This document shows, piece by piece, positions 1,213 through 37,911 of a stretch of 64,000 nucleotides of DNA; the first letter of the stretch is position 1; the number at the start of each line of letters is the position of its first letter. The stretch is from Limisphaerales bacterium (lineage in GTDB: Bacteria > Verrucomicrobiota > Verrucomicrobiia > Limisphaerales > AAA164-E04). Under the pieces are notes generated by a model, which was not told the DNA's origin, did not search any database, and saw nothing but the letters and a program-made list of their open reading frames with translations. The stretch is from contig OZ242022.1 of assembly GCA_965204945.1 (NCBI GenBank), positions 2,138,369 through 2,202,368 on the forward strand, in the 5' to 3' direction. The position numbers and the translations under genes were made by a program.

Positions 1213-3243
1213 ATGTTCAATCAATTTGTAAAGTATGAGAGCGATTTTCAGGGCTGGTGGCGGGACGGCTGGCCGGGTTTGAATCCTGATTCTTCTAATT
1301 ATATTGAGTTTCTCAGTTCCAAGGAAAATCCGAAAAAGGCGCGGAGTCTTTGGGATCATCAATGGGATGCGTTTTTGCGGGTGGTGTATGCGCACGAGGT
1401 TTTGGGGAAGACGGAATTGGGCGCGGACGGATTGCTTTTGAACATCGTGACCGGCGGCGGCAAAACGGCGATTATCGCCGCTGTGATTGCGTGGTTGCGC
1501 ATTGCGTGCGGGGTTCAAAAGTTTGTTTTGCTTTGTCCGAATTTGATTGTGCGGGATCGTTTGGAGGATGATTTTCAAAAGGGGAAGGTGTTTCGGGATC
1601 GGGATTTGTTGCCGGATTGGGCGTCTTGTCGGGCGGATGATTTTGCGCTGACGACTTTGGGAGGCGGCAAAGAGGGCGGTTGGTCCAGCTTGCTGAGCGC
1701 CCACGTGATTTTGGGGAACATTCATCAGTTTTACCAAAGCAATCAAGGCGGGCGGAGCAATCTGGCGGGATTGATGAACGGGCCGAACTTCGCCGTGTTC
1801 AACGACGAGGCGCATAATTCGAAGGCGGAGAAGTATGAGGAAACCCTCTTGCTGATGCGGGAAAAGATTGCGCTGCGCTTGGATACGACGGCAACGCCGG
1901 ATCGCGAGGACGGAAAAACGCCGGACAGCGCTATGATTTACGAATACGGCGTGACCGACGCGCTGGCCAACGAGATAATCAAGACGCCGGTAGTTTATCA
2001 GCCGGACATCAAAACCGTGCAGTTGACTTACACGGACGCGCACACAGGCGAACAGCGCAAGGTGGAGGAAATTGACTGGGACAAAGTGGATCGGCTTGGA
2101 GTGAACGCCACACAGTGGGTCACGGATCCCAAGCCGATGCAGCAGCAGATGGCCATTGCGTTGGCGCGGTTGCGAGAGCAAGAACGAAGGGCAAAGGATC
2201 GGTATCAGCCGATTTTGTTTGTGGTGGCAGTGTGCAAGCTGGACGCGATGAAAGCCGAGCAGACGCTGAACAACTATTTCAAGGCAAAGACACTGCTGGT
2301 TACAGAGGACAGCGGCGACGACGAGCGGCGGATGGCGACTGACCTGGGGCGGGCGAAAGAACTGGAGAAGGCGCGGCGCAGCCGCCAGCCTTACAAAGCG
2401 GTGGTGAGCGTGCTGATGCTGCGCGAGGGATGGGACGTGCCGGAAGTGGGCGTTATTTTACTGTTGCGCAAGTTCAGCAGCAAAGTCTACGGGCAACAAG
2501 TCATTGGGCGAGGTCTGCGCCGAGTGCGGACAAGGGGCGTTCAAGCGGATGAGCGGCAGATTTGTGCCGTCGTGGATCATCCCAAGCTGGAGCATCAATG
2601 GTTGTGGGACATATTTGGCGCCAAAAAGCGGGAAGGAGTTTCGATTGACGATGAGTTTGACGAGACCGAAGACTTGCCGGAACCGCCGCCGAAGCAAGAG
2701 CTAACCAAACCGCATTTGGTGATTGACGTGCCGGAGCCGGATTCGGCGGCGGATGATGGCGAGTTTGACGTTGGCGGAATCCAGTCACCGCCAGAGCCTT
2801 GTGAAGATTGGAGGGAATCGCTGGACAAGATTGAGTACGATCCCACGGCGGTGGAGATTACGGAAGTGGACATCGCCGTCGTGGTAGGGCGGGAGTTGGG
2901 CGGCGAGGGTTGGAAAACCGTTCACTCGGCGCCGGGCAAAGAGGATTCTAAGTCTGCAGTGGTGAAAATATCGGATCAAGAGTTGCGCGAGGCGGTGAAG
3001 GTCGGTTTGCTCCAGATGGCCGAGGAGTTGACCGTCGAGGCCGGCTACGCGGTTTTGGACAACAAGGCAAAAGTTTATAGCGCCCTATTGCGACACGTTC
3101 GCGCCAAGTTTCTCAATGGCTTATCGCTTGGGCTGGCCGAGCGTTCGGAAGTGGAGTTCGTTTGGAAGATGCTGGCGCAGGTGAGGAAAAAAGTCTCGGC
3201 AATGCCCGGACTGGTGGCCGGAATGATTGAATATGGCAATTAG
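1213..3243 (+). CDS. SF2 helicase, Type III restriction Res-like (ResIII/DEAH)
   Basis: Motif I NIVTGGGKTAI, motif II FNDEAHNS, motif III LDTTATP, LMLREGWDVPEV and motif VI QVIGRGLRR. No fused nuclease domain at the C-terminus. Confidence 0.85.
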   Translation: MFNQFVKYESDFQGWWRDGWPGLNPDSSNYIEFLSSKENPKKARSLWDHQWDAFLRVVYAHEVLGKTELGADGLLLNIVTGGGKTAIIAAVIAWLRIACGVQKFVLLCPNLIVRDRLEDDFQKGKVFRDRDLLPDWASCRADDFALTTLGGGKEGGWSSLLSAHVILGNIHQFYQSNQGGRSNLAGLMNGPNFAVFNDEAHNSKAEKYEETLLLMREKIALRLDTTATPDREDGKTPDSAMIYEYGVTDALANEIIKTPVVYQPDIKTVQLTYTDAHTGEQRKVEEIDWDKVDRLGVNATQWVTDPKPMQQQMAIALARLREQERRAKDRYQPILFVVAVCKLDAMKAEQTLNNYFKAKTLLVTEDSGDDERRMATDLGRAKELEKARRSRQPYKAVVSVLMLREGWDVPEVGVILLLRKFSSKVYGQQVIGRGLRRVRTRGVQADERQICAVVDHPKLEHQWLWDIFGAKKREGVSIDDEFDETEDLPEPPPKQELTKPHLVIDVPEPDSAADDGEFDVGGIQSPPEPCEDWRESLDKIEYDPTAVEITEVDIAVVVGRELGGEGWKTVHSAPGKEDSKSAVVKISDQELREAVKVGLLQMAEELTVEAGYAVLDNKAKVYSALLRHVRAKFLNGLSLGLAERSEVEFVWKMLAQVRKKVSAMPGLVAGMIEYGN

Positions 3244-7220: not shown

Positions 7221-8330
7221 TCAAAGTTCCGCCAAAAGACTTTGCCCAGGAACCATGTCTTCATCCTTCGGATCCATCAGGCCAAAAAGAAAAGTTTGAC
7301 CGGTGAATCCGTCAGGTGAAATCTCCGCAATCAAACGATCACGAATCCTTTCAGCAAGTTCCACACTTGGCCTTTCTTCCCCCGGCTCCGCTACCCACTC
7401 ACTCCGAACGCAATTGCGAACAACACGGAAATCCCTTTCTAGTTGCTCTTTCCAAGTGAGCCGACGGTTTTGGTTCGTTTTGGGATCCCATCGGGTTTGG
7501 ACAGGATGCAGTTCTTCTGGATCATGCTGGCTGGCCTGCTGGCTGGTTACAAAGTAGTTTTCCAAGCCGACCATGGTATGCGCAATCCGAATGGGATTGT
7601 CTCCGACGCCTTCTTCTTCAAAGATGCGGTAGGCTTGCTCGAACTCTGGAGAGTAGCGGTAGGCCTGTTTATAGAATCCGTCTAGCCGTTTGTGCCGCAT
7701 GATAATCCGCCGTTGCTCTTCGATTTCAGGGTCGCCGTTATGGTATCTCTGGTCCGCTAGTTCTATGGCGCGCCAGAGTCTTTCGTCTTCCGCTTGTTTT
7801 TCTTCCGTGGTGAGATCGTCTCTTGCCCAGACTTTTTCGGATTCCGCTTCGTAGGTTTCAAAGGCTTCATCGGTGTTTCTTTCCAACTCCTTTTTGTAGG
7901 CGCGGTACTTTTCATCACTGTGCGCGATGTTGTTTCCCGGGTCAAAGACGATGTCAGGGTGATACCCTCTCTGGAAAGGGAAGTTGTCGATCCATTCTTT
8001 TCGTTCTTCGTAAAGTTTGGCGTAGGCGGCCTTTGCTTCGGCTTCGTCTTGCTCTCTCCACCATTGTTCCGACCGTTCTTCATCGGTAAGAAGGCGACCG
8101 TATTTGCGCATCTCGGCTTTGTCCCGGGCGAGGTCTTCGGCGACGCTTTGGCGGGCCCATTCTTTCTCTTCGGGAGTCAAGTCATCCCCGTATTTCTTGA
8201 GGATGATGGCGTCCATTTCGTCAAGCGGCGCTGATGCCTTCTCTTCCGTTTTGGTTTGCTTTTGGGGAGCGAGGAGGACAACGGCAATCACAGCCAGAAT
8301 GCCTCCCGTGATAATGTAAACACTTCTCAT
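7221..8330 (-). CDS. N-terminally anchored protein of a window-specific paralogous family (WxDxFPF...EFEQ...IRDRLIxEI)
   Basis: AAGGAG Shine-Dalgarno. TM segment GGILAVIAVVLLA. Shares WIDNFPF, SPEFEQAYRIFEEEG, LTWKEQLER and AERIRDRLIAEISPDGF with 35894-36934 and with decayed copies at 24956-25649 and 37093-37911. Confidence 0.7.
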   Translation of the reverse strand: MRSVYIITGGILAVIAVVLLAPQKQTKTEEKASAPLDEMDAIILKKYGDDLTPEEKEWARQSVAEDLARDKAEMRKYGRLLTDEERSEQWWREQDEAEAKAAYAKLYEERKEWIDNFPFQRGYHPDIVFDPGNNIAHSDEKYRAYKKELERNTDEAFETYEAESEKVWARDDLTTEEKQAEDERLWRAIELADQRYHNGDPEIEEQRRIIMRHKRLDGFYKQAYRYSPEFEQAYRIFEEEGVGDNPIRIAHTMVGLENYFVTSQQASQHDPEELHPVQTRWDPKTNQNRRLTWKEQLERDFRVVRNCVRSEWVAEPGEERPSVELAERIRDRLIAEISPDGFTGQTFLFGLMDPKDEDMVPGQSLLAEL

Positions 8331-8350
8331 CGGTAATTTCTCCTTTCTTT

Positions 8351-8830
8351 TTATGCGGACGGCTTGATGACGTTCTCGTTCTGGTAGACGGGGTACTCGT
8401 GTTTAGTTGTGTATCTGCACCCGGTTCTACGATTCCGGCCCGGCCGGTGTTTTTTGTTACACGTTAAGCACCATCGATAGATTTTCTTGTGTTTAAAGTG
8501 ACGCTCAGCGCGCCCTACCCATGTGGGGGTGCCGATGATTTTGAAGCTGCTCCACGGGATTTGGGTCAGTCCAAACCGCTTGAAGTTGTCGTCGCACCAT
8601 GACATTGGTTCAGGATAGTCAATGAAAGGCTCCTCATCATCGGGAGTTCTGGTTCGGATGTTGTAGATGAATCCAGCTTCGCGGGCGTAATAGCTAAATC
8701 TGGTAACGTAGGTGGAGCGACTGCCGGGTTCTTCCAGTTCGGTAGGAGAAAGCCCGCCGCCGCCGGGAATGGGGACGTGTTTAAAGTCCGACCAGAGTTT
8801 CACTTCCTTTTCGCAGGTGTAGGTACTCAT
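8351..8830 (-). CDS. hypothetical basic/Cys-containing protein
   Basis: ORF with plausible composition. Start taken at MSTYTC (ATG 8830). Overlaps the preceding gene by about 50 nt. Confidence 0.5.
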   Translation of the reverse strand: MSTYTCEKEVKLWSDFKHVPIPGGGGLSPTELEEPGSRSTYVTRFSYYAREAGFIYNIRTRTPDDEEPFIDYPEPMSWCDDNFKRFGLTQIPWSSFKIIGTPTWVGRAERHFKHKKIYRWCLTCNKKHRPGRNRRTGCRYTTKHEYPVYQNENVIKPSA

Positions 8831-9755
8831 AGCGCGGCCCACCACTATGACCCTTCTTTAAGGGGCCGACAGTAACCGGCCATCGCCATCTGGCTCGGGG
8901 ATTATACCAGTTTCTGCGTCTTTTATCCAAGTCTTCCTGAATTTCTGCGTCAGTGAGTGGCTTGACATAGCCACCGTAATAATCGGTGTAGGTTTCAAGG
9001 TATCTTGTTTCAGGCCTTCGTCGATCCCATGTGTACAAGGGCTCCCATGAGCCGTTTCGTAGCACGAGGACTGCGTAGGTTACTTCGATGCCTCTTCGGA
9101 GAGCGGCGTTGTGGTTCACGTAGTAGTCGAGGACGTCGTCTGCATCAAGGGTGGAGGGTGTGTTTCTGGAGTCGGTGCTGCTGGTGTCGTACGCTTTGAG
9201 TTGATTGGCCTCGGCTTGGGCGTCGACGCTGTGAACTAATGTTTTGTTGCTCCCGTCGTCGTCGAACTCATATCTTCGCACGCGCAACTTCCGCTTGCTG
9301 TACAGCCATGTATCAGTATCGGCGATGGCGGTTTCCTTGAGTATGGCTGTGTTAAACGCCGCATTGAGGCCTTGGGTGATGGCGTAGCCGGTAAAGAGTT
9401 TAACGAAAAAGTCTGTGCCATAGGCGGCGGCAATGACGGCTGGCCAAGCGGCATTGGCTTTGTATTGATAGACGAAGTTTCCGGCGGCAGTGATTGCCAG
9501 AGCGGTGACGAGCGCGGTTTTCTTGCGCCAGTTCCATTGATTGAGCCGTCGGCGAATGGGTTGGATGATTGCGCTTGCCAGCGAGACGGCTTTGGAAACA
9601 AGCCGTCCGATAGGCCTCAGGATGGCGCCCGGCGCAAAGCGCAGGTGCCACGGCGTCTTTGTCGATGAATTGTTCATCGGTTTCTCTCCTGTGGAGGCAT
9701 TCTCCACCGCGGCAACGGCGCGGTCAAGATTAATTTCGTTCTTTAATTTGTGCAT
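8781..9755 (-). CDS. hypothetical membrane protein, first gene of cassette 1
   Basis: TM segments LVTALAITAAGNFV and WPAVIAAAYG. An alternative start at ATG 9677 is preceded by AGGAGA and may be the real one. Confidence 0.6.
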   Translation of the reverse strand: MHKLKNEINLDRAVAAVENASTGEKPMNNSSTKTPWHLRFAPGAILRPIGRLVSKAVSLASAIIQPIRRRLNQWNWRKKTALVTALAITAAGNFVYQYKANAAWPAVIAAAYGTDFFVKLFTGYAITQGLNAAFNTAILKETAIADTDTWLYSKRKLRVRRYEFDDDGSNKTLVHSVDAQAEANQLKAYDTSSTDSRNTPSTLDADDVLDYYVNHNAALRRGIEVTYAVLVLRNGSWEPLYTWDRRRPETRYLETYTDYYGGYVKPLTDAEIQEDLDKRRRNWYNPRARWRWPVTVGPLKKGHSGGPRYEYLHLRKGSETLVGL

Positions 9756-9802
9756 AAAACGGTCTTTCTTTGCTGATTCGTATCTTTAAGTGTCTTTATT
9801 TT

Positions 9803-9958
9803 CGTAATTCAGGCCGATTACCCATCTTCAGCAAAGCAAAAGCGCGAAGTTTTCCGCCTGTTCGCCAGAGCAAAACAGGGAAAAGCGTACGATTCTCCCG
9901 CCAAAATTTCATATCTAAACTGTGATATTCAGCGAGAGACCCGACAAGCAAATCACCT
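9803..9958 (-). promoter_or_regulatory. conserved structured non-coding leader, copy 1
   Basis: The reverse complement aligns with 34223-34378. Identical blocks include GAATATCACAGTTT, TTTCCCTGTT and AATCGGCCTG, and three hairpins are preserved. Confidence 0.7.
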
Positions 9959-10213
9959 CACCGAAGATGGGCAAAACCGAAAAAATCAACACCTTCGTCA
10001 ACACTTTTCTTAACTTTTTTTCTTTCGAGATTGGAGGGAAATTCTGTTTTTTGGCGGGCAAGATGGGCTGGTTGGCGGTTTCAAAAATCTATCGGCAAGC
10101 CTTCTGAGACGGCTTAGTAACGGCTTAGTTTCCTATTTGTGTTGGTTTTGTGAAGGTGTAACGGTTTTGTGGAGTCCTTGATTTTTAGGCGAGGATTGCC
10201 TTAAATCCTTTGC

Positions 10214-26968: not shown

Positions 26969-28774
26969 TTAAAATTCAAGTATCTCTTCCAGTAAATCAA
27001 ATATTACTTGGAAATGCTTAAAGTCGTCTTTTGTTCCGTATTTGCAAAGCCAATCGTAGAGGTTGGTTTTTTCATCTTTATTAACAGTCCACTCTTCAAC
27101 GACGCTTTCCTTTTGCTCCCGTACAGTTCTTTTATGTCCTTCTTCGATGTCTATGAATGCAGGTTTGAATTCTTGCGCTTTTTCTAGAGTTTTTCTCAAA
27201 TAAGTTTTCAATGCCTTTTTTCAATGGGTGATTTTCATGTAGGTGGATATGCCGCTTAAACACGTTTCCTTTATCGTCCTTGTTTGGTTTATCACAATCA
27301 TAGAGAAGAATTATTTTCTGCTTAATTAGTTTGCAAAGTTGAGGAGTGATATTTTTCCAGATTTTATCCAAATTCCCAAAACCATTTCCGTCTCTTAATT
27401 CAACTCTTTGGAGTAATTCTTTCTGACCAAGCAATTCCGCAGCTTTCTCCAAATATTTTACATCAGTTTTGCCTTCCATGAAAACGAGAGGTTTTTGAGC
27501 ATTTTCAATTTCTTTTCGTATATCCTCTTTAAACTTTTTGGTTTCGGCGAAGGCTCGATAGGCATCGCCGAATTCGCTAAATTCTTCCGGGCTAATTTCT
27601 TGACCTTGTGGCAACCTGTAAAGCGCAAAACCATCTTCTCCAAAAGTTTTCTGCATTCCAAGAATAAAGAGCAGAGAGTGAGTTGTGACAATAAATTGGA
27701 CGCGTGGAGATATTTTCATCAATTCGGAAAGCACATCATACTGGTGGACAGTGTGCAAGTGTAAGTCAATTTCATCTACAACAACGATGCCTCGAATTTC
27801 CTCGGTTTTAGTGAAACCTTCCCCGGCCAAATCAAAATCTCTGGGGATAGAGAAAAATAGATTTAGCAAAGAAGTTTCTCCGCTAGATAATTGGAAAATA
27901 TTAGGAACAAGAATTTGACGATCTTGCATTAAAGCAACCCCTCTATCGTGTCTCGAATAAACTCCAAATCCTAGATTTTCATTTGCTTGGAAAATAATTC
28001 GGAGAATAGAAAGAATTTGACGATAAAGAGATGTTGTTGGTCCACTGGATCCTAGAAATATAGGGACATAATAAGGATCTATTGATATAGGCAGCTCTTT
28101 AATTTTGATTTCATAAACAGAACTGTCGTAATTTAAGCCAAATCCCCAGTTTCGATTATCGTGGAGAGGCGAGTGTTGAATAATTTTACGGTTAGAATGT
28201 CCATGTATATGACTTAAAGTTGTGTACTCAGCTTTGGTTTTTAAGTTTTCTTCATTTAACCATGCCGGCTCTTGAAATCTATTGGGAGGAAAATAGAGAA
28301 TACAGTTATTTCGAAAAATCTCTTTTAGGCTGTCCTTTTGCGCAAATTCTAGAAAAGTACATCCCAGCCAACTTTGTTCCGTATTGGGTATATCTTTCCA
28401 TAATTTATTTATACTATTGATTGAAAACGAGGGCTTTTGAGGAAATTTTTCTTTTGTACGATCTAAGACTAATTCTTGGAAATATATATCACGTTCAAAC
28501 TCTATTTTCGCGCAAGAGTGTTCACTTCCAGATTTAATATAGGTAGGAGATCGAAGTTTGTACACTTTTCCTTTTTTACTTCGCTATTTTCAGGATAGAC
28601 GATGCCCTGGGCATCCATCAAACCGTTGACGATATGGGATAGTAAAATGCTTTTGCCAGAACCATTTTGTCCGACTAGCAAAACGGGTTTGGGATTGTCT
28701 CCGTTGAAGGGAAAAACAATTTCTAGGTGGTCAATTGGTCCATAGTTTTCAATTTGGGTTTTCTTTGCGTACAT
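26969..28774 (-). pseudogene. OLD/ABC-type AAA ATPase with a C-terminal TOPRIM/DUF4435-like region, broken by two frameshifts
   Basis: Walker A GQNGSGKS (ORF 28502-28774). LSSGETSLL, VVVDEIDLHLH, IVTTHS and FMEGKTD (ORF 27132-28565). The tail continues in a third frame (26969-27211). Low GC. Confidence 0.7.
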
Positions 28775-33973: not shown

Positions 33974-34222
33974 CTTTAATTGAACTTCTGATTCCGCCAA
34001 CCAATCCCGCAACCCATCAAAACCATCCCTAAGCCGTCACTAAACCGTTGCAAAACGCTCCCCAAAACCAAAAAACAAACCGCCGCCGCTAACAAAAAAC
34101 GAAGAAAAATCGCTCAATTCAGCAGATTTCATCAAAAAAATCGAAGAAAGACAAAAAAGTTGAGAAAAAAGCTTGCGCTCAAAATGAATTTTTGCTTTTC
34201 TCGCTCTTGTCAGTTCCAAGTG

Positions 34223-34378
34223 GGGCGATTCGCTATCGGGTCTCCCCGCTGGAATATCACAGTTTGGATATGCAATGCGTCGGGAGAGTCGTAATTACCT
34301 TTCCCTGTTGGCTTCGGCAAACAGGTGGAAACTCGCGTGATTTGCTCCGCTTGGAACTGACAATCGGCCTGGACGCGG
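34223..34378 (+). promoter_or_regulatory. conserved structured non-coding leader, copy 2
   Basis: See copy 1. Contains the CCTGTT-G-GC-TTCG-GC-A-AACAGG hairpin at 34304-34325. Confidence 0.7.
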
Positions 34379-34444
34379 GAAGAGGTTTCCCAAAGGCGCC
34401 GGCCAAATCAGAGAATACAAAACAGTTTAGCTACATAGATTCGC

Positions 34445-35857
34445 ATGAAAAAAACAATATTCTTTTCAAAACGGCTTGACGATTCCCCCGAATCGGTCAA
34501 GGATAGCAAGAACAATGACACGCAAACTGCATCGCAAACGACGGCAAACGGCCAAGCGGAGAAGGAATCCCGCTGGACGCGCAAACGCATCGGCCTGCTC
34601 GTCGTCCTTGCGCTCACCTGCATCGCCACTATGCTGACGACAAGCCTCATCGAGCAAGCAGGAGCGGCGTCCGCATCCACAAATCAAATCACGCGACAAA
34701 CTCCGCCCTCCTACCGAAGTAAATCACCTACCACATCCACAAATCGAGTAATTCCACGTAGAAGCAGAAACATCGCGGCTCCATCAAGAGCGATGCCAAC
34801 CAGAACAGCGCGAACCAACCAAGTGCAAACGCCAAGTCGTAGAACAATCCCCGTACCGAATCGAAGTAGAACACGACCAGCCGCAGTTCCTGTGCCAGTC
34901 GTGGTGGTCGCCAAACCCGTTCTCAAAAAAGGCGCTATCGTAGCAGGAAAATGGCTCATCGCCGTTCTTGCCGAATATGGAGTTCACAGCGCACTAGACA
35001 GGGTCTTTCAAAATAACAAAGACCAAGAAGCCTACGTAACCGTCCACGGCGCGCACTGGCTCTCCAATGAGTATTTTTGGAGATCGTCCAGTCCACACAC
35101 ACCTTCGCCTAGAAATGTTTTAACAACAATAGCAACAATGAAAAAAGAAGACGATCCAGAAAGCGCAGAAGGATGGGACGCCTTTAATAATCGCTCCATG
35201 ACGCAGTCGGAAGCAAAAGGCCACATGAAACGCAGGATAGCCAGCACCACAGAAAGCATATGGTCTGCAATAGTGCCTGCAACGACCACCCAGCATGCGC
35301 AAACAATGTTCTTCCCTATCAAAGCAAGAACAGATCATTATGCGGCAGAAGAAGCAAGAATACTCGCATTGTATCGTGCCATGCATCCAACCATAATATT
35401 AACTAAAGGCGGGGAAGACCTTAAAAAATGGAAAGTGGGAAGTTTTGTAATGTTCAGCGATTTCGTCGATCCTCCCCCGATTTTGAAAAAACTCGGAACG
35501 GAAAACGCCATCGACAGCGACGCCAACTATTACAAAGCCAAAGCCAGATGGAAATACCGAGAACTCAATCCAAACGGAACATGGGGGGAATGGCAAGATG
35601 CTGAAAAAACCTTCAGCCAAGAAACCGGGGACGGAATCAAGAGCTGGGATGACCATACCTTCGACTTTGACTTCTGCAAAGATAACCAAGAAATCACCGA
35701 ACCCGAAATCTACAGAGGCATCAAACGATTCATTTCAAAACGGCCCGTTTATGAACAGCGAAGAGCGAGAGGACAAATGAGTCGTGGCGGAAAGTATCGC
35801 TGGGTAAGAGTCGGATGGGAACCGGTGGTGGCTCAGAAGTACCATGACGCCAATTAG
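34445..35857 (+). CDS. hypothetical membrane-anchored basic protein, first gene of cassette 2
   Basis: TM segment IGLLVVLALTCIATML, then a P/R/T-rich linker. NYYKAKARWKY weakly resembles NWYNPRARWRW in 8781-9755. Confidence 0.6.
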   Translation: MKKTIFFSKRLDDSPESVKDSKNNDTQTASQTTANGQAEKESRWTRKRIGLLVVLALTCIATMLTTSLIEQAGAASASTNQITRQTPPSYRSKSPTTSTNRVIPRRSRNIAAPSRAMPTRTARTNQVQTPSRRTIPVPNRSRTRPAAVPVPVVVVAKPVLKKGAIVAGKWLIAVLAEYGVHSALDRVFQNNKDQEAYVTVHGAHWLSNEYFWRSSSPHTPSPRNVLTTIATMKKEDDPESAEGWDAFNNRSMTQSEAKGHMKRRIASTTESIWSAIVPATTTQHAQTMFFPIKARTDHYAAEEARILALYRAMHPTIILTKGGEDLKKWKVGSFVMFSDFVDPPPILKKLGTENAIDSDANYYKAKARWKYRELNPNGTWGEWQDAEKTFSQETGDGIKSWDDHTFDFDFCKDNQEITEPEIYRGIKRFISKRPVYEQRRARGQMSRGGKYRWVRVGWEPVVAQKYHDAN

Positions 35858-35893: not shown

Positions 35894-36934
35894 ATGACCA
35901 AAATAGATAAACTCCTTTACGGCGGATTCGCCGTCGTGGCCATCGGCGGCCTAATAACCATGCTGGTGTCCGTTTTCTCGCCATCAAAGCCAGTAGTGGA
36001 AGAATCCGTCGAGCCTCCGCAAACCGAGCAAGCAACGATGAAAACAACTTCGATTGTCAACGAGCCAGCGCAACCAGAAAATGGCACTGGAGAGTACTGG
36101 TTTGACGAGAATGGAAACAAAGTCTGGACCACCCAAGAGCAAATCGCCGAAAGCGATGCTTACGAAGCAGAACTCAAACGGCAAGAAGAAGAGCAAAGAG
36201 CCCTCGATGAAGCGGAGAAAGAATGGTGGGAAAGCAGGCAAGATTGGGTAGACCGATTCCCGTTCGAGCCAACCCCGCATCCAGAGATTACCTACGATCC
36301 TGATGCCTTTCGAGCCAGCCGAGAAATGCGCGATTTGGCTAGAAACCACAGCTTGTTGAAAATGTTCTACGAAAGCTGGGTGCCTTACACCGAAGAGTTC
36401 GAACAACTGCACGACATCATCGAAGAAGAGCTCGGCGAAGTGGGAAGCACGGTGGCTCTCGCTGTAACATTCAGAACGCTCGCAAAATACCACAAAGCGG
36501 CGCAACAATCCCCCGATTCGGTTTACCGAGAAAACGTCCGAGTGGAACTGCCAAAACCAGAACCGGTCAACACAATGGTCGCTCTGGGGCCGGAGTTTTA
36601 CAGCCTCCCCCTAGAAAAACAAATCCAGATAAGTAATGAGCTCATCGACGCCCAAATAGAAGCCATGAGAGCTAATAACACGCAAAAATACGAAGTGCGT
36701 GACGTCACTTGGGCGGAACGAACGGAAAGACTGGCAACGCTCATTATCGGCCCGTTAGTGAACCAGAGAACCGGATGGGAAGGAATTCCCAAAGAACAGG
36801 CAATCGCCATTAGGGATCGCTTAATCAACGAAATCCCGGCGGCGGGTTTCTTGGAACTGCCCGAATTGATTTGGGCTTACAATGGCAAATACATGGGCGA
36901 ATTGAAAGCCGGTGATCCGTTGCTCGTCAAGTAG
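35894..36934 (+). CDS. paralog of 7221-8330 (WxDxFPF...EFEQ...IRDRLIxEI family)
   Basis: TM segment GGFAVVAIGGLITMLV; WVDRFPF, TEEFEQLHDIIEEE, VTWAERTER and AIAIRDRLINEIPAAGF. Confidence 0.7.
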   Translation: MTKIDKLLYGGFAVVAIGGLITMLVSVFSPSKPVVEESVEPPQTEQATMKTTSIVNEPAQPENGTGEYWFDENGNKVWTTQEQIAESDAYEAELKRQEEEQRALDEAEKEWWESRQDWVDRFPFEPTPHPEITYDPDAFRASREMRDLARNHSLLKMFYESWVPYTEEFEQLHDIIEEELGEVGSTVALAVTFRTLAKYHKAAQQSPDSVYRENVRVELPKPEPVNTMVALGPEFYSLPLEKQIQISNELIDAQIEAMRANNTQKYEVRDVTWAERTERLATLIIGPLVNQRTGWEGIPKEQAIAIRDRLINEIPAAGFLELPELIWAYNGKYMGELKAGDPLLVK

Positions 36935-37092: not shown

Positions 37093-37911
37093 TTGCAGTT
37101 CGAGCAGTTCTATCGCCTCTTGGAAAAGCGCGGCAGAACCGAAAAGCCGGCCGCCATAGCCAATGCGTTCTCATGTCTTCAGGACTACTACCAAACCTTA
37201 TACTATAATCCCGAAGAAATAGTGCTACAATCCAACGGGGAACCGTCTATGAGGCGGGTGCCCTCTAAATCGGGTGGAAGAGATACTTGGAGGACTGTTA
37301 CATGGAGAGAGCGAGCGGAAAGCTTCAAAGAAGGGATTGTGTCAGCAATAGGCAATCCTAGAGATTGGCCGCCTCAGCATCGCGAGGAATAGCCCGTGGA
37401 ATTCGCTCGCGCCGTAGCCGAAGAGCTAATCCGAGATGTTCCCAACATGGCCGACATCGCTTACGCCGGTTATTTTGCTGGTTCTCACGATAGGAATTAC
37501 AGGCAGTCATTAGAAGGGGAAGATTCTTTGATAACGCCGTATGTGGGGTATCAGGCCGCTTATGAAGAAGTGGAGGCCGAGCTGTACAGACGGCTCGATG
37601 AGGCATGGGTAAAACAAAGAGAAAGGATGCGTCTAAGAGGGATATTAGCGGACGGCACTTTAGTAAATGCGTATGGCGAACTTATCATGGCCAATGCGGG
37701 TTCTTTTGGCAGTTTTATGTCGGATGGCCAAAGGTTTGATTTAGAAGAAATGGAAGGCGGCAGTATTCGCCCGTTTGCCGAAGCCATGAAAGCCTTAGAG
37801 GAGCAGTTTGAAAACACGCCGCTGCAACAGGATTCTAATTCTCCTCAAATCAGCGAGGAAGAACGGCGACTACTAGAAGCCATGCGAATGCTGAAAGAAG
37901 CTGTTGAATAA
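37093..37911 (+). pseudogene. N-terminally truncated paralog of the same family, interrupted by an in-frame TAG
   Basis: FEQFYRLLEK.. and VTWRERAES..HREE-TAG(37390-37392)-PVEFARAVAEELIRDVP. Both ORFs are in the same frame. There is no signal anchor. Confidence 0.55.

Follow-up and report, generated by a model that had tools for sequence, protein, structure and literature searches.

A candidate structured RNA in the leader of a hypervariable membrane-protein cassette of Limisphaerales

We found a non-coding element of about 170 nucleotides (nt) that occurs twice in a 64,000-nt stretch of the genome of a Limisphaerales bacterium of the phylum Verrucomicrobiota (GenBank assembly GCA_965204945.1, contig OZ242022.1, positions 2,138,369 to 2,202,368; hereafter the window, with positions counted from its first nucleotide unless another locus is named), each time shortly upstream of an unannotated two-gene cassette. 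We consider it somewhat probable that the element is a previously undescribed structured RNA, which is transcribed as the cis-acting 5′ leader of a cassette encoding two membrane proteins and is read by a shared factor. A first-pass annotation made from the letters of this DNA had proposed a structured, non-coding, sense-strand RNA in the cassette leader, and this proposal is supported by the predicted fold, by covariation among 24 copies and by a marked asymmetry between the strands.

Extent and predicted fold of the element

The final covariance model (R1) recovers copy 2 at 34202-34372 on the plus strand (cmsearch, 181.8 bits, E 1e-42) and copy 1 at 9809-9979 on the minus strand (140.6 bits, E 2e-32), and beyond these two neither this model nor blastn detects a copy in the window. 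The pair shares 77% identity over 123 nt (blastn, E 1e-12; 34220-34337 versus 9961-9843), a box of 23 nt further upstream is 91% identical between them (blastn), and the identical blocks listed in the first-pass annotation were all recovered in a MAFFT alignment of both. The 5′ boundary given there (34223 and 9958) has to be moved outward, as it lies within the 5′ arm of the closing helix P1, which had been overlooked because its sequence is not conserved between the copies. Both copies lie in the sense orientation, as had been claimed, with the first ATG of cassette gene 1 starting 73 nt (copy 2) and 54 nt (copy 1) past the end of the element. The claim that no conserved open reading frame (ORF) crosses the element also held: mechanical TTG ORFs exist, all three sense frames are stopped in 8 of 22 copies, and 44 of the 59 relative indels among the copies are 1 nt long, which argues that the element is non-coding.

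Folding 191 nt of each copy (34195-34385, minimum free energy (MFE) -91 kcal/mol, z -6.7; 9795-9985, MFE -69 kcal/mol, z -5.3) yields the same architecture in both and shows a predicted sense-strand three-way junction of the helices P1, P2 and P3, in which a long closing helix formed by the two flanks (P1) holds two internal hairpins. These flanks are unrelated in sequence between the copies, yet complementary within each copy. In copy 2, the 5′ arm of P1 (TTGTCAGTTCCAAGTGGGGCGA; 34207-34228, +) pairs with the 3′ arm (TTGCTCCGCTTGGAACTGACAA; 34342-34363, +) in a duplex of about -42 kcal/mol, whereas in copy 1 TTGCCCATCTTCGGTGAGGTGA (9953-9974, -) pairs with TTGCTTTGCTGAAGATGGGTAA (9818-9839, -) in a duplex of about -32 kcal/mol that includes seven G.U pairs; compared between the copies, the outer arms have identities of 0.43 and 0.38. 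P1 measures at least 22 base pairs (bp), with 20-25 contiguous pairs and -30 to -42 kcal/mol in intact copies, and the MFE structure of copy 2 lengthens the closing helix to about 34 pairs.

The helix P2 (CGGGTCTCCCCGCTG ... CGTCGGGAGAGTCG, 34237-34291, +, in copy 2; 9890-9944, -, in copy 1) encloses an apical region (34252-34278 and 9903-9929, respectively) with the loop motif tCACAGTt (UCACAGU in RNA), which is invariant in all 24 copies. P3, modelled with 13 pairs, is a hairpin in copy 2 (CTTTCCCTGTTGGC-TTCG-GCAAACAGGTGGAA; 34299-34330, +) and aligns with 9852-9883 (-) in copy 1, where the loop is TCTG; across the family its tetraloop varies among UUCG, UCUG, UCAG, UCCG and others. Directly 3′ of P1 follows a conserved tail of the family motif cGgCC.G (TCGGCCTGG at 34364-34372, +, and, by alignment, TCGGCCTGA at 9809-9817, -), with a mean pairwise identity of 0.86 versus 0.33-0.39 in the adjacent outer arms. 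Besides the UCACAGU loop, the nucleotides without variation in 24 of 24 copies comprise most of the GGGAGAG strand, parts of P3 and the CGGCC.G of this tail (CGGCCYG).

Two of the three hairpins recognized in the first-pass annotation, TCTC(C/T)C...GGGAGA and CCTGTT/AACAGG, are kept throughout the family. The third, ATATC-N8-GATAT, is not: both window copies have it, but across the family it displays no covariation, and of the 20 copies that have letters at the two positions of its C-G pair, 12 break this pair. The alignment further separates the leaders into two classes by their 3′ flank, one of which, including copy 2, has an extra hairpin 3′ of the tail in MFE structures (34365-34404, +); in the same class, 34375-34384 (GCGGGAAGAG) may alternatively pair with 34195-34204 to give a longer closing helix. 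Two other pairings were considered and rejected. A tertiary or alternative pairing of the invariant tail with the CGGGUC of P2 or the CGAUU of the J1/2 segment, sought by eye, is broken by the variants L005, L006, L016 and L017, and the conserved 5′ UUGAUUUUCU is paired to the purine-rich stretch preceding the ATG in some of the MFE structures, inconsistently between copies. RNAalifold run on a plain MAFFT alignment misses P1 because the variable arms are misaligned there; its place was taken by a hand-mapped consensus of single-sequence folds and a covariance model built from 13 intact copies.

Covariation and strand asymmetry

Pairing was counted in a 24-copy alignment fitted to the model, whose cells are not independent, as the paralogues are related by descent, so that the independent evidence amounts to about 14 arm types rather than 24 sequences. 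On this count, 88.8% of the cells of P1 (22 pairs) are paired and 20 of its pairs show both-side, i.e., compensatory, changes. Both-side changes occur in two pairs each of P2 (13 pairs, 81% of cells paired) and P3 (13 pairs, 84%), where the variation is mostly one-sided, from G-C to G.U. Over the whole structure, 83.6% of the cells are paired versus 73.2% in column shuffles, none of 500 reaching the observed value, and pairing falls to 41-50% when the partners are slid by 1-3 columns. Covariation in further homologues, by which the first-pass annotation had proposed to judge its stems, lies chiefly in P1, a helix absent from that annotation. Between arm types, the outer arms of P1 are 33-39% identical, which is near random, as against 62-70% in the core and 86% in the 3′ tail. 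The comparison thus shows P1 as a helix whose sequence appears to drift freely while its pairing is kept.

The kind of pair that has replaced another bears on the nature of the selected molecule, as a palindrome of double-stranded DNA would decay to G.T and A.C mismatches equally. Across the 12 intact arm types, the cells of P1 comprise 200 Watson-Crick pairs, 42 G.U, 7 A.C and 10 others, and in 13 of 13 copies it is the sense strand that folds more stably (mean P1 duplex -34.0 versus -25.7 kcal/mol for the antisense). The excess of G.U over A.C, together with the greater stability of the sense strand, points to selection on an RNA, or at least on a single sense strand.

Distribution of the element

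Extending the search with nhmmer and the covariance model to Limisphaerales genomes and metagenomes, as the first-pass annotation had recommended, brought to light 22 further copies, for a total of 24. All 24 precede one and the same unannotated cassette, and all lie on the sense strand, 1.3-2.4 kb 5′ of its second gene (gene 2), save the one at L008:7949-8143, which precedes a neighboring cassette. In each of the 16 copies with an aligned downstream flank, about 50-130 nt separate the element from the first ATG of gene 1 downstream; the remaining eight are on the sense strand 1.3-1.8 kb 5′ of gene 2, in the same position relative to the cassette. The core has a single orientation in 24 of 24 copies, with no inverton-like flipping of the segment between the arms. 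Gene 2 loci number 10 in the metagenome-assembled genome (MAG) OZ251460.1, six in OZ241891.1 and two in a Pedosphaera MAG, and one genome holds at least nine elements.

The known distribution is very narrow, being that of one order. The element is absent from the cassette at L010, where an unrelated leader of about 230 nt stands instead, and it was not found in the degenerate Pedosphaera copies or with the distant gene 2 homologues of other Verrucomicrobiota, those at L018-L020 having no long stem like P1 upstream. A pattern scan of the JGI metagenome collection gave 57 matches, all of which are chance matches by nhmmer; viral contigs gave two chance pattern matches and no relatives of gene 2, and plasmids gave no match to the element. 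The P1 arms have no match elsewhere in any locus examined, which rules them out as guides to other sequences. No known RNA family was matched, in line with the first-pass annotation: Rfam 15 at the level of the gathering threshold has zero matches in the whole 64-kb window, and a search of 451-nt slices at E<=10 gave nothing for copy 1 and, beside copy 2, a lone spurious antisense match to snoZ107 (13 bits versus a threshold of 50). Full-text literature searching found no description of the motif.

The two-gene cassette

The cassettes are short, with two or three genes, and are dispersed among housekeeping genes. Gene 1 of copy 2 (34445-35857, +; 470 aa) is hypervariable and mosaic; its product has a cytoplasmic N-terminal region, a transmembrane (TM) helix, a low-complexity linker and a beta-rich C-terminal domain, and has only 20 homologues, with mosaic N-termini. 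One NCBI genome encodes a protein that shares 96% identity with the window's gene 1. AlphaFold2 (AF2) is confident for residues ~195-464, which constitute the beta-rich domain, and the best Foldseek match of this domain is an aerolysin-family epsilon-toxin, which is non-significant (E 0.1, match probability 0.13). Gene 2 of copy 2 (35894-36934, +; 346 aa) encodes an N-terminal TM helix and a conserved helical domain and is the conserved anchor of the cassette, with 170 homologues, none of them annotated, and a family of 249 clusters among 1.84 billion representatives. Neither protein has a significant match in Pfam, NCBIfam, PADLOC or by AF2 and Foldseek, and a sequence search of the PDB gave no match for gene 2.

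In copy 1, gene 1 (8351-9755, -) is split into overlapping ORFs of 324 aa (8781-9755, -) and 164 aa (8351-8845) and may be frameshifted or decaying; it is followed by gene 2 (7221-8330, -; 369 aa), whose product is 25% identical to that of copy 2 over 244 aa. The gene 1 products of the two copies were described in the first-pass annotation as barely alignable, and they indeed have no significant similarity (BLASTP E 0.44). A third, acidic ORF after gene 2 in copy 2 (37396-37911, +) has a 69%-identical counterpart only at L003:5565-6080 and is an optional cassette gene. The host belongs to the PVC group, and the chromosomal surroundings are unremarkable, with housekeeping genes for Lon, a LolA-like protein, ATP synthase and ParA. 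The window also holds two possible defense genes with no apparent connection to the cassettes, an AAA_21 (AbiEii-like) ATPase (27132-28565, -) and a ResIII/SNF2 helicase (1213-3243, +).

The 5′ module

Conservation at the DNA level extends over a 5′ module of about 600 bp (~34000-34600 in copy 2), in which tandem decamers, an A-rich box, the segment TTGATTTTCT, the RNA element, a linker and the first codons of gene 1 follow in this order. Scored by locus, the body of gene 1 is conserved in 3-5 of 25 loci and gene 2 in 23 of 25, and the 5′ module is conserved. The decamers, CCTAAGCCGT and ACTAAACCGT upstream of copy 2 (34028-34048, +) and ACTAAGCCGT twice upstream of copy 1 (10109-10129, -), are in each case 11 nt apart. 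In both copies and in several related loci, decamers like ACTAAGCCGT stand about 130-190 nt before the element, which makes them a candidate regulator-binding site, possibly of a transcription factor.

The A-rich box reads AAAAAAGTTGAGAAAAAAGCTTGCGC in copy 2 (34153-34178, +), where we predict the promoter region, and AAAAAAGTTAAGAAAAGTGTTGACG in copy 1 (9995-10020, -); it is conserved in the 16 copies aligned, with the family form AAAAAGTTRAGAAAAA..TTGMS. A 29-nt match with 93% identity to the box of copy 1 is found at L010:2458-2485, in the cassette without the RNA element, and because the box survives there we place the promoter upstream of the element. Directly 5′ of P1, the TTGATTTTCT-like segment (TTTTGCTTTTCT in copy 2, 34190-34201, +; TTGATTTTTTC in copy 1, 9979-9989, -) is conserved in nearly all copies and could be either the -10 region of the promoter or the 5′ end of the RNA. 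Sigma-70 and sigma-54 readings of the upstream box were unconvincing on inspection. No terminator-like site was found at copy 2; copy 1 has two weak ones, both within the element and both lacking an equivalent in copy 2.

Further features were noticed between the element and the early part of gene 1. In leaders of the copy 1 type, a strong AGGAG Shine-Dalgarno sequence accompanies a second ATG in the same frame (9678-9676; window 9676-9697, -), and a small CCTCC-ACA-GGAG hairpin is able to sequester this Shine-Dalgarno sequence; gene 1 may really start elsewhere than at the first ATG, which would also alter the leader length. About 30 nt into the ORF of gene 1, a hairpin (34476-34500, +, and about 9705-9725, -) keeps its position while its stem sequence (TTGAC-GATTC..GAATC-GGTCAA versus GACCGCG..CGCGGT) and the encoded residues differ.

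Proposed role in the control of the cassettes

We propose that transcription from a promoter in the upstream A-rich box would cause every cassette mRNA to begin with the fold of the element. The invariant loop, strand and tail could then be read by one trans-acting factor, most likely a protein, common to all paralogues; such a shared factor is probable because about ten or more paralogues per genome keep the same invariant nucleotides. All cassettes would thereby come under common post-transcriptional control, be it of mRNA stability, processing or translation. A more speculative step concerns P1, which in its length and its regular pairing resembles an RNase III substrate (intramolecular double-stranded RNA of about 20 bp or more with no large internal loops): if RNase III cuts it, the core would be freed from the mRNA, which would then begin at the conserved tail. 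Seen as DNA, the hypervariable gene 1 lies between two conserved stretches, the 5′ module and gene 2, which would serve as homology tracts for the exchange of modules between loci.

Several observations weigh against this proposal. The cassette at L010 manages without the element. In about 5-6 of the 24 copies (L007, L008, L006 and L081, with L015 and L009 as weaker cases) the arms do not match, from which it follows that P1 pairing is dispensable in the short term. P2 and P3 are supported mostly by one-sided changes, with two double-change pairs each, and the covariation counts derive from a model-fitted alignment of related paralogues with about 14 independent arm types. No recognizable canonical sigma-70 promoter was found at copies 1 and 2, and the transcription start, and with it the transcription of the element, is a prediction from sequence. 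No candidate binding protein for the element was found, and cleavage by RNase III is a speculative conjecture from the length of the helix.

The position of the copies helps to weigh a related possibility, that the element is a processed trans-acting small RNA (sRNA), with P1 as its processing stalk and a core of about 110 nt that is excised and acts elsewhere as a sponge or regulator, its dose being raised by the many copies. A long, near-perfect helix that pairs independently of its sequence, a core and tail that are conserved across paralogues while the arms are not, and the presence of at least nine elements in one genome would all be expected of such an RNA. However, all 24 copies are fixed in position and orientation before gene 1, with none free-standing, no terminator follows the element, and neither the invariant loop nor the arms have target complementarity in the loci examined. 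We consider an sRNA unlikely on these grounds, if still worth keeping in mind.

Exchange of the module between loci

The first-pass annotation had stressed that conservation is much higher in the non-coding DNA than in the coding DNA downstream. This is true as an observation, but it is not all a matter of constraint on the element: the 5′ module is swapped between loci by recombination, and this accounts in part for the higher conservation seen outside the genes. The same matched pairs of arm types are met in different genomes, but some copies are chimeric: L007 combines a 5′ arm of type B with a 3′ arm of type A, and L008 has the reverse. These two elements (L007:2450-2642 and L008:7949-8143) lie on opposite strands of OZ251460.1 at ~2.895 Mb and 3.229 Mb, 335 kb apart, and their arms pair crosswise, the 5′ arm of L007 with the 3′ arm of L008 at -30.7 kcal/mol and the 5′ arm of L008 with the 3′ arm of L007 at -36.9 kcal/mol. 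Intact pairs of type B are seen in L084 and of type A in window copy 2, L012, L013 and L087. The reciprocal swap is as expected from a 335-kb inversion with its crossover in the conserved core, to judge from the arrangement of the arms. Likewise, L006 and L081 each hold one arm whose partner sits in another genome, namely in L086 and L004, respectively.

Whole modules also appear to be replaced. L084 and L087 represent the same locus in two strains, with flanks 93-98% identical, 5′ modules 83% identical and arms of different types (B versus A); homology between them resumes at L084:8968, at about codon 137 of gene 1, and the same breakpoint is found in L091, which suggests that the leader and the N-terminal domain are exchanged as a block. 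At the syntenic locus before Pyr_redox, GrpE and DnaJ, three strains carry three 5′ modules (L084:8192-8968, L087:8250-8986 and L091:~7900-8461). A segment of 2313 bp with most of gene 1 and gene 2 is 100% identical between L007:2797-5109 and L008:2797-5109; in L008 it is preceded by unrelated sequence and has no 5′ module, which makes it a promoter-less duplicate. Together with the visibly mosaic gene 1 proteins, these cases mark the 5′ module as an apparently portable unit. The crossovers would call for nothing beyond ordinary homologous recombination in the conserved tract of about 600 bp; no recombinase or transposase was seen in or beside the cassettes, and no integrase is among the Pfam matches of the ORFs and called genes around them.

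Such exchange leads to a bolder version of the leader reading, in which the leader would be the control module of a cassette-shuffling surface-protein system akin to antigenic variation. P1 would serve as a ‘barcode’ of each copy, the core would be read by a dedicated factor for processing or choice, and the module would direct recombination among about ten or more loci. We regard this as rather a long shot, slightly more so than an sRNA.

We find it improbable, too, that the element is primarily a DNA feature, i.e., a site for recombination or homology, or else the remnant of a mobile element resembling a miniature inverted-repeat transposable element (MITE), with the RNA fold as a by-product. 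The exchanges speak for it: the reciprocal arm swap between two inverted copies 335 kb apart, the mismatched arms with partners in other genomes (L006 with L086, L081 with L004), the module replaced at a locus that is otherwise 93-98% identical with breakpoints recurring at L084:8968, and the exact 2313-bp duplicate of a cassette body without the 5′ module. Yet a G.U to A.C ratio of 42:7 and a sense strand more stable than the antisense in 13 of 13 copies are unexpected for a palindrome of double-stranded DNA, the arms differ between copies, unlike the terminal repeats of transposons, and the orientation relative to the gene is the same in 24 of 24 copies. Nor is a recombinase or transposase found in or beside the cassettes, plain homologous recombination in the ~600-bp tract being sufficient for the crossovers.

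Riboswitch, operator and ribozyme

The first-pass annotation had also suggested a riboswitch or attenuator, a suggestion that does not survive well. A junction that binds a small molecule, such as a second messenger, could co-regulate many surface-protein cassettes, just as multi-copy c-di-GMP riboswitches in some genomes co-regulate many loci; the three-way junction with its highly conserved junction and loop nucleotides and the many copies per genome before membrane or surface-type proteins would suit it. However, P1, with at least 22 bp (up to ~34 bp when extended), is too stable for switching, there is neither a conserved terminator or anti-terminator nor an obvious expression platform, and the possible pairing between the 5′ segment and the stretch that precedes the ATG differs from copy to copy. 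No Rfam riboswitch is matched even at E<=10, the distribution is confined to one order, and the genes form an unannotated, hypervariable multi-copy family, apparently not a metabolic one. A riboswitch is hence quite improbable.

We give still less credence to promoter or operator DNA, in which the conserved blocks would be protein sites on double-stranded DNA and transcription would start downstream. The conservation of the whole upstream region, including the tandem ACTAAGCCGT decamers and the A-rich box, fits this reading, as does the lack of a located canonical promoter; against it, operator sites need not be enclosed in a helix of at least 22 bp that covaries and is strand-asymmetric, and in L010 the promoter-like box has been kept although the element is missing, which puts the promoter 5′ of the element. 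An operator is thus very improbable. A self-cleaving ribozyme in the leader, to which the compact multi-helix junction, the invariant unpaired nucleotides and the tie to a repeated, recombining genetic unit might be thought to point, is hardly credible, as no ribozyme family is matched in Rfam 15 at E<=10 and, to our knowledge, the UCACAGU loop, GGGAGAG strand and CGGCCYG tail recall no known catalytic core.

Significance

The cis-acting leader that we favor is an element of a known kind, a structured 5′ leader, which matches no known family. It would be a new, well-supported family of structured RNAs in an order where experimental genetics hardly exists, and its predicted design is unusual, in that a helix of at least 22 bp, unconstrained in sequence, clamps a three-way junction whose sequence is constrained. 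The element also marks a family of two membrane proteins, so far unannotated, whose many copies are hypervariable and recombine, and it supplies a model with which to search for them; such traits as a rule indicate that the proteins interact with other cells, phages or hosts. Should the RNA turn out to be the shared regulatory handle of these cassettes, it would offer a natural entry point to what the family does; were the shuffling version to hold, a widespread though uncultivated phylum would be shown to have an RNA-linked variation system of a new kind. A general caution also follows, in that non-coding conservation above that of the adjoining gene can reflect selection at the RNA level plus gene conversion.

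Comparison with known systems

Several known systems resemble the element in part, namely RNase III stems, Correia elements, JUMPstart and c-di-GMP leaders and variable-gene systems. The attC sites of integrons present the opposite pattern, since in our element the stem is variable and the center conserved, and there are no tandem arrays. The bridge RNA of IS110, the omega RNA of IscB (HEARO) and the msr-msd of retrons differ from the element, whose adjacent cassette proteins match no recombinase, nuclease or reverse transcriptase in Pfam, NCBIfam, PADLOC or fold searches and which has no HEARO or retron match in Rfam.

JUMPstart/ops sequences (RfaH) and multi-copy c-di-GMP riboswitches (GEMM) likewise set a conserved non-coding leader over many otherwise different operons under one regulator; the element differs from these in having no Rfam match, in standing before cassettes of two or three genes and in the lack of any NusG paralogue or expression platform among what was seen. 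The conserved flanks around a hypervariable coding segment and the mosaic genes are shared with the pilE/pilS system of Neisseria, vlsE of Borrelia and the polymorphic-toxin loci with their orphan modules, and the likeness extends to the promoter-less duplicate of a cassette body (L008) and to the replacement of modules between loci. In contrast to those systems, almost every cassette has its own 5′ module rather than there being a single expression site, there is no evidence of programmed or high-frequency switching, and the structured RNA has no counterpart there.

Correia elements of Neisseria (also known as NEMIS) and transcribed MITEs such as ERIC are ~100-160 bp long, with inverted repeats of ~25 bp around a core, and form a hairpin that is cut by RNase III and thereby alters mRNA stability. 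Our element shares with them its multiple copies, the inverted repeats around a core, the location close upstream of genes and, by prediction, the co-transcription. The inverted repeats of Correia elements are, however, conserved between copies and accompanied by target-site duplications, whereas here the arms are 33-39% identical and it is the core that is conserved; moreover, the copies are bound to one gene family in one orientation, not to many unrelated sites.

The stems cut by RNase III, such as the processing stalks of rRNA and those in the rnc, pnp and phage lambda N leaders, have the same long, near-perfect duplex of at least 20 bp, in which pairing prevails over sequence and which, in the latter cases, lies in a 5′ leader. 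The element differs from them in that its cleavage is predicted from the length of the helix, its stem encloses a sequence-conserved three-way-junction core, and the whole unit is repeated before about ten or more paralogous cassettes per genome.

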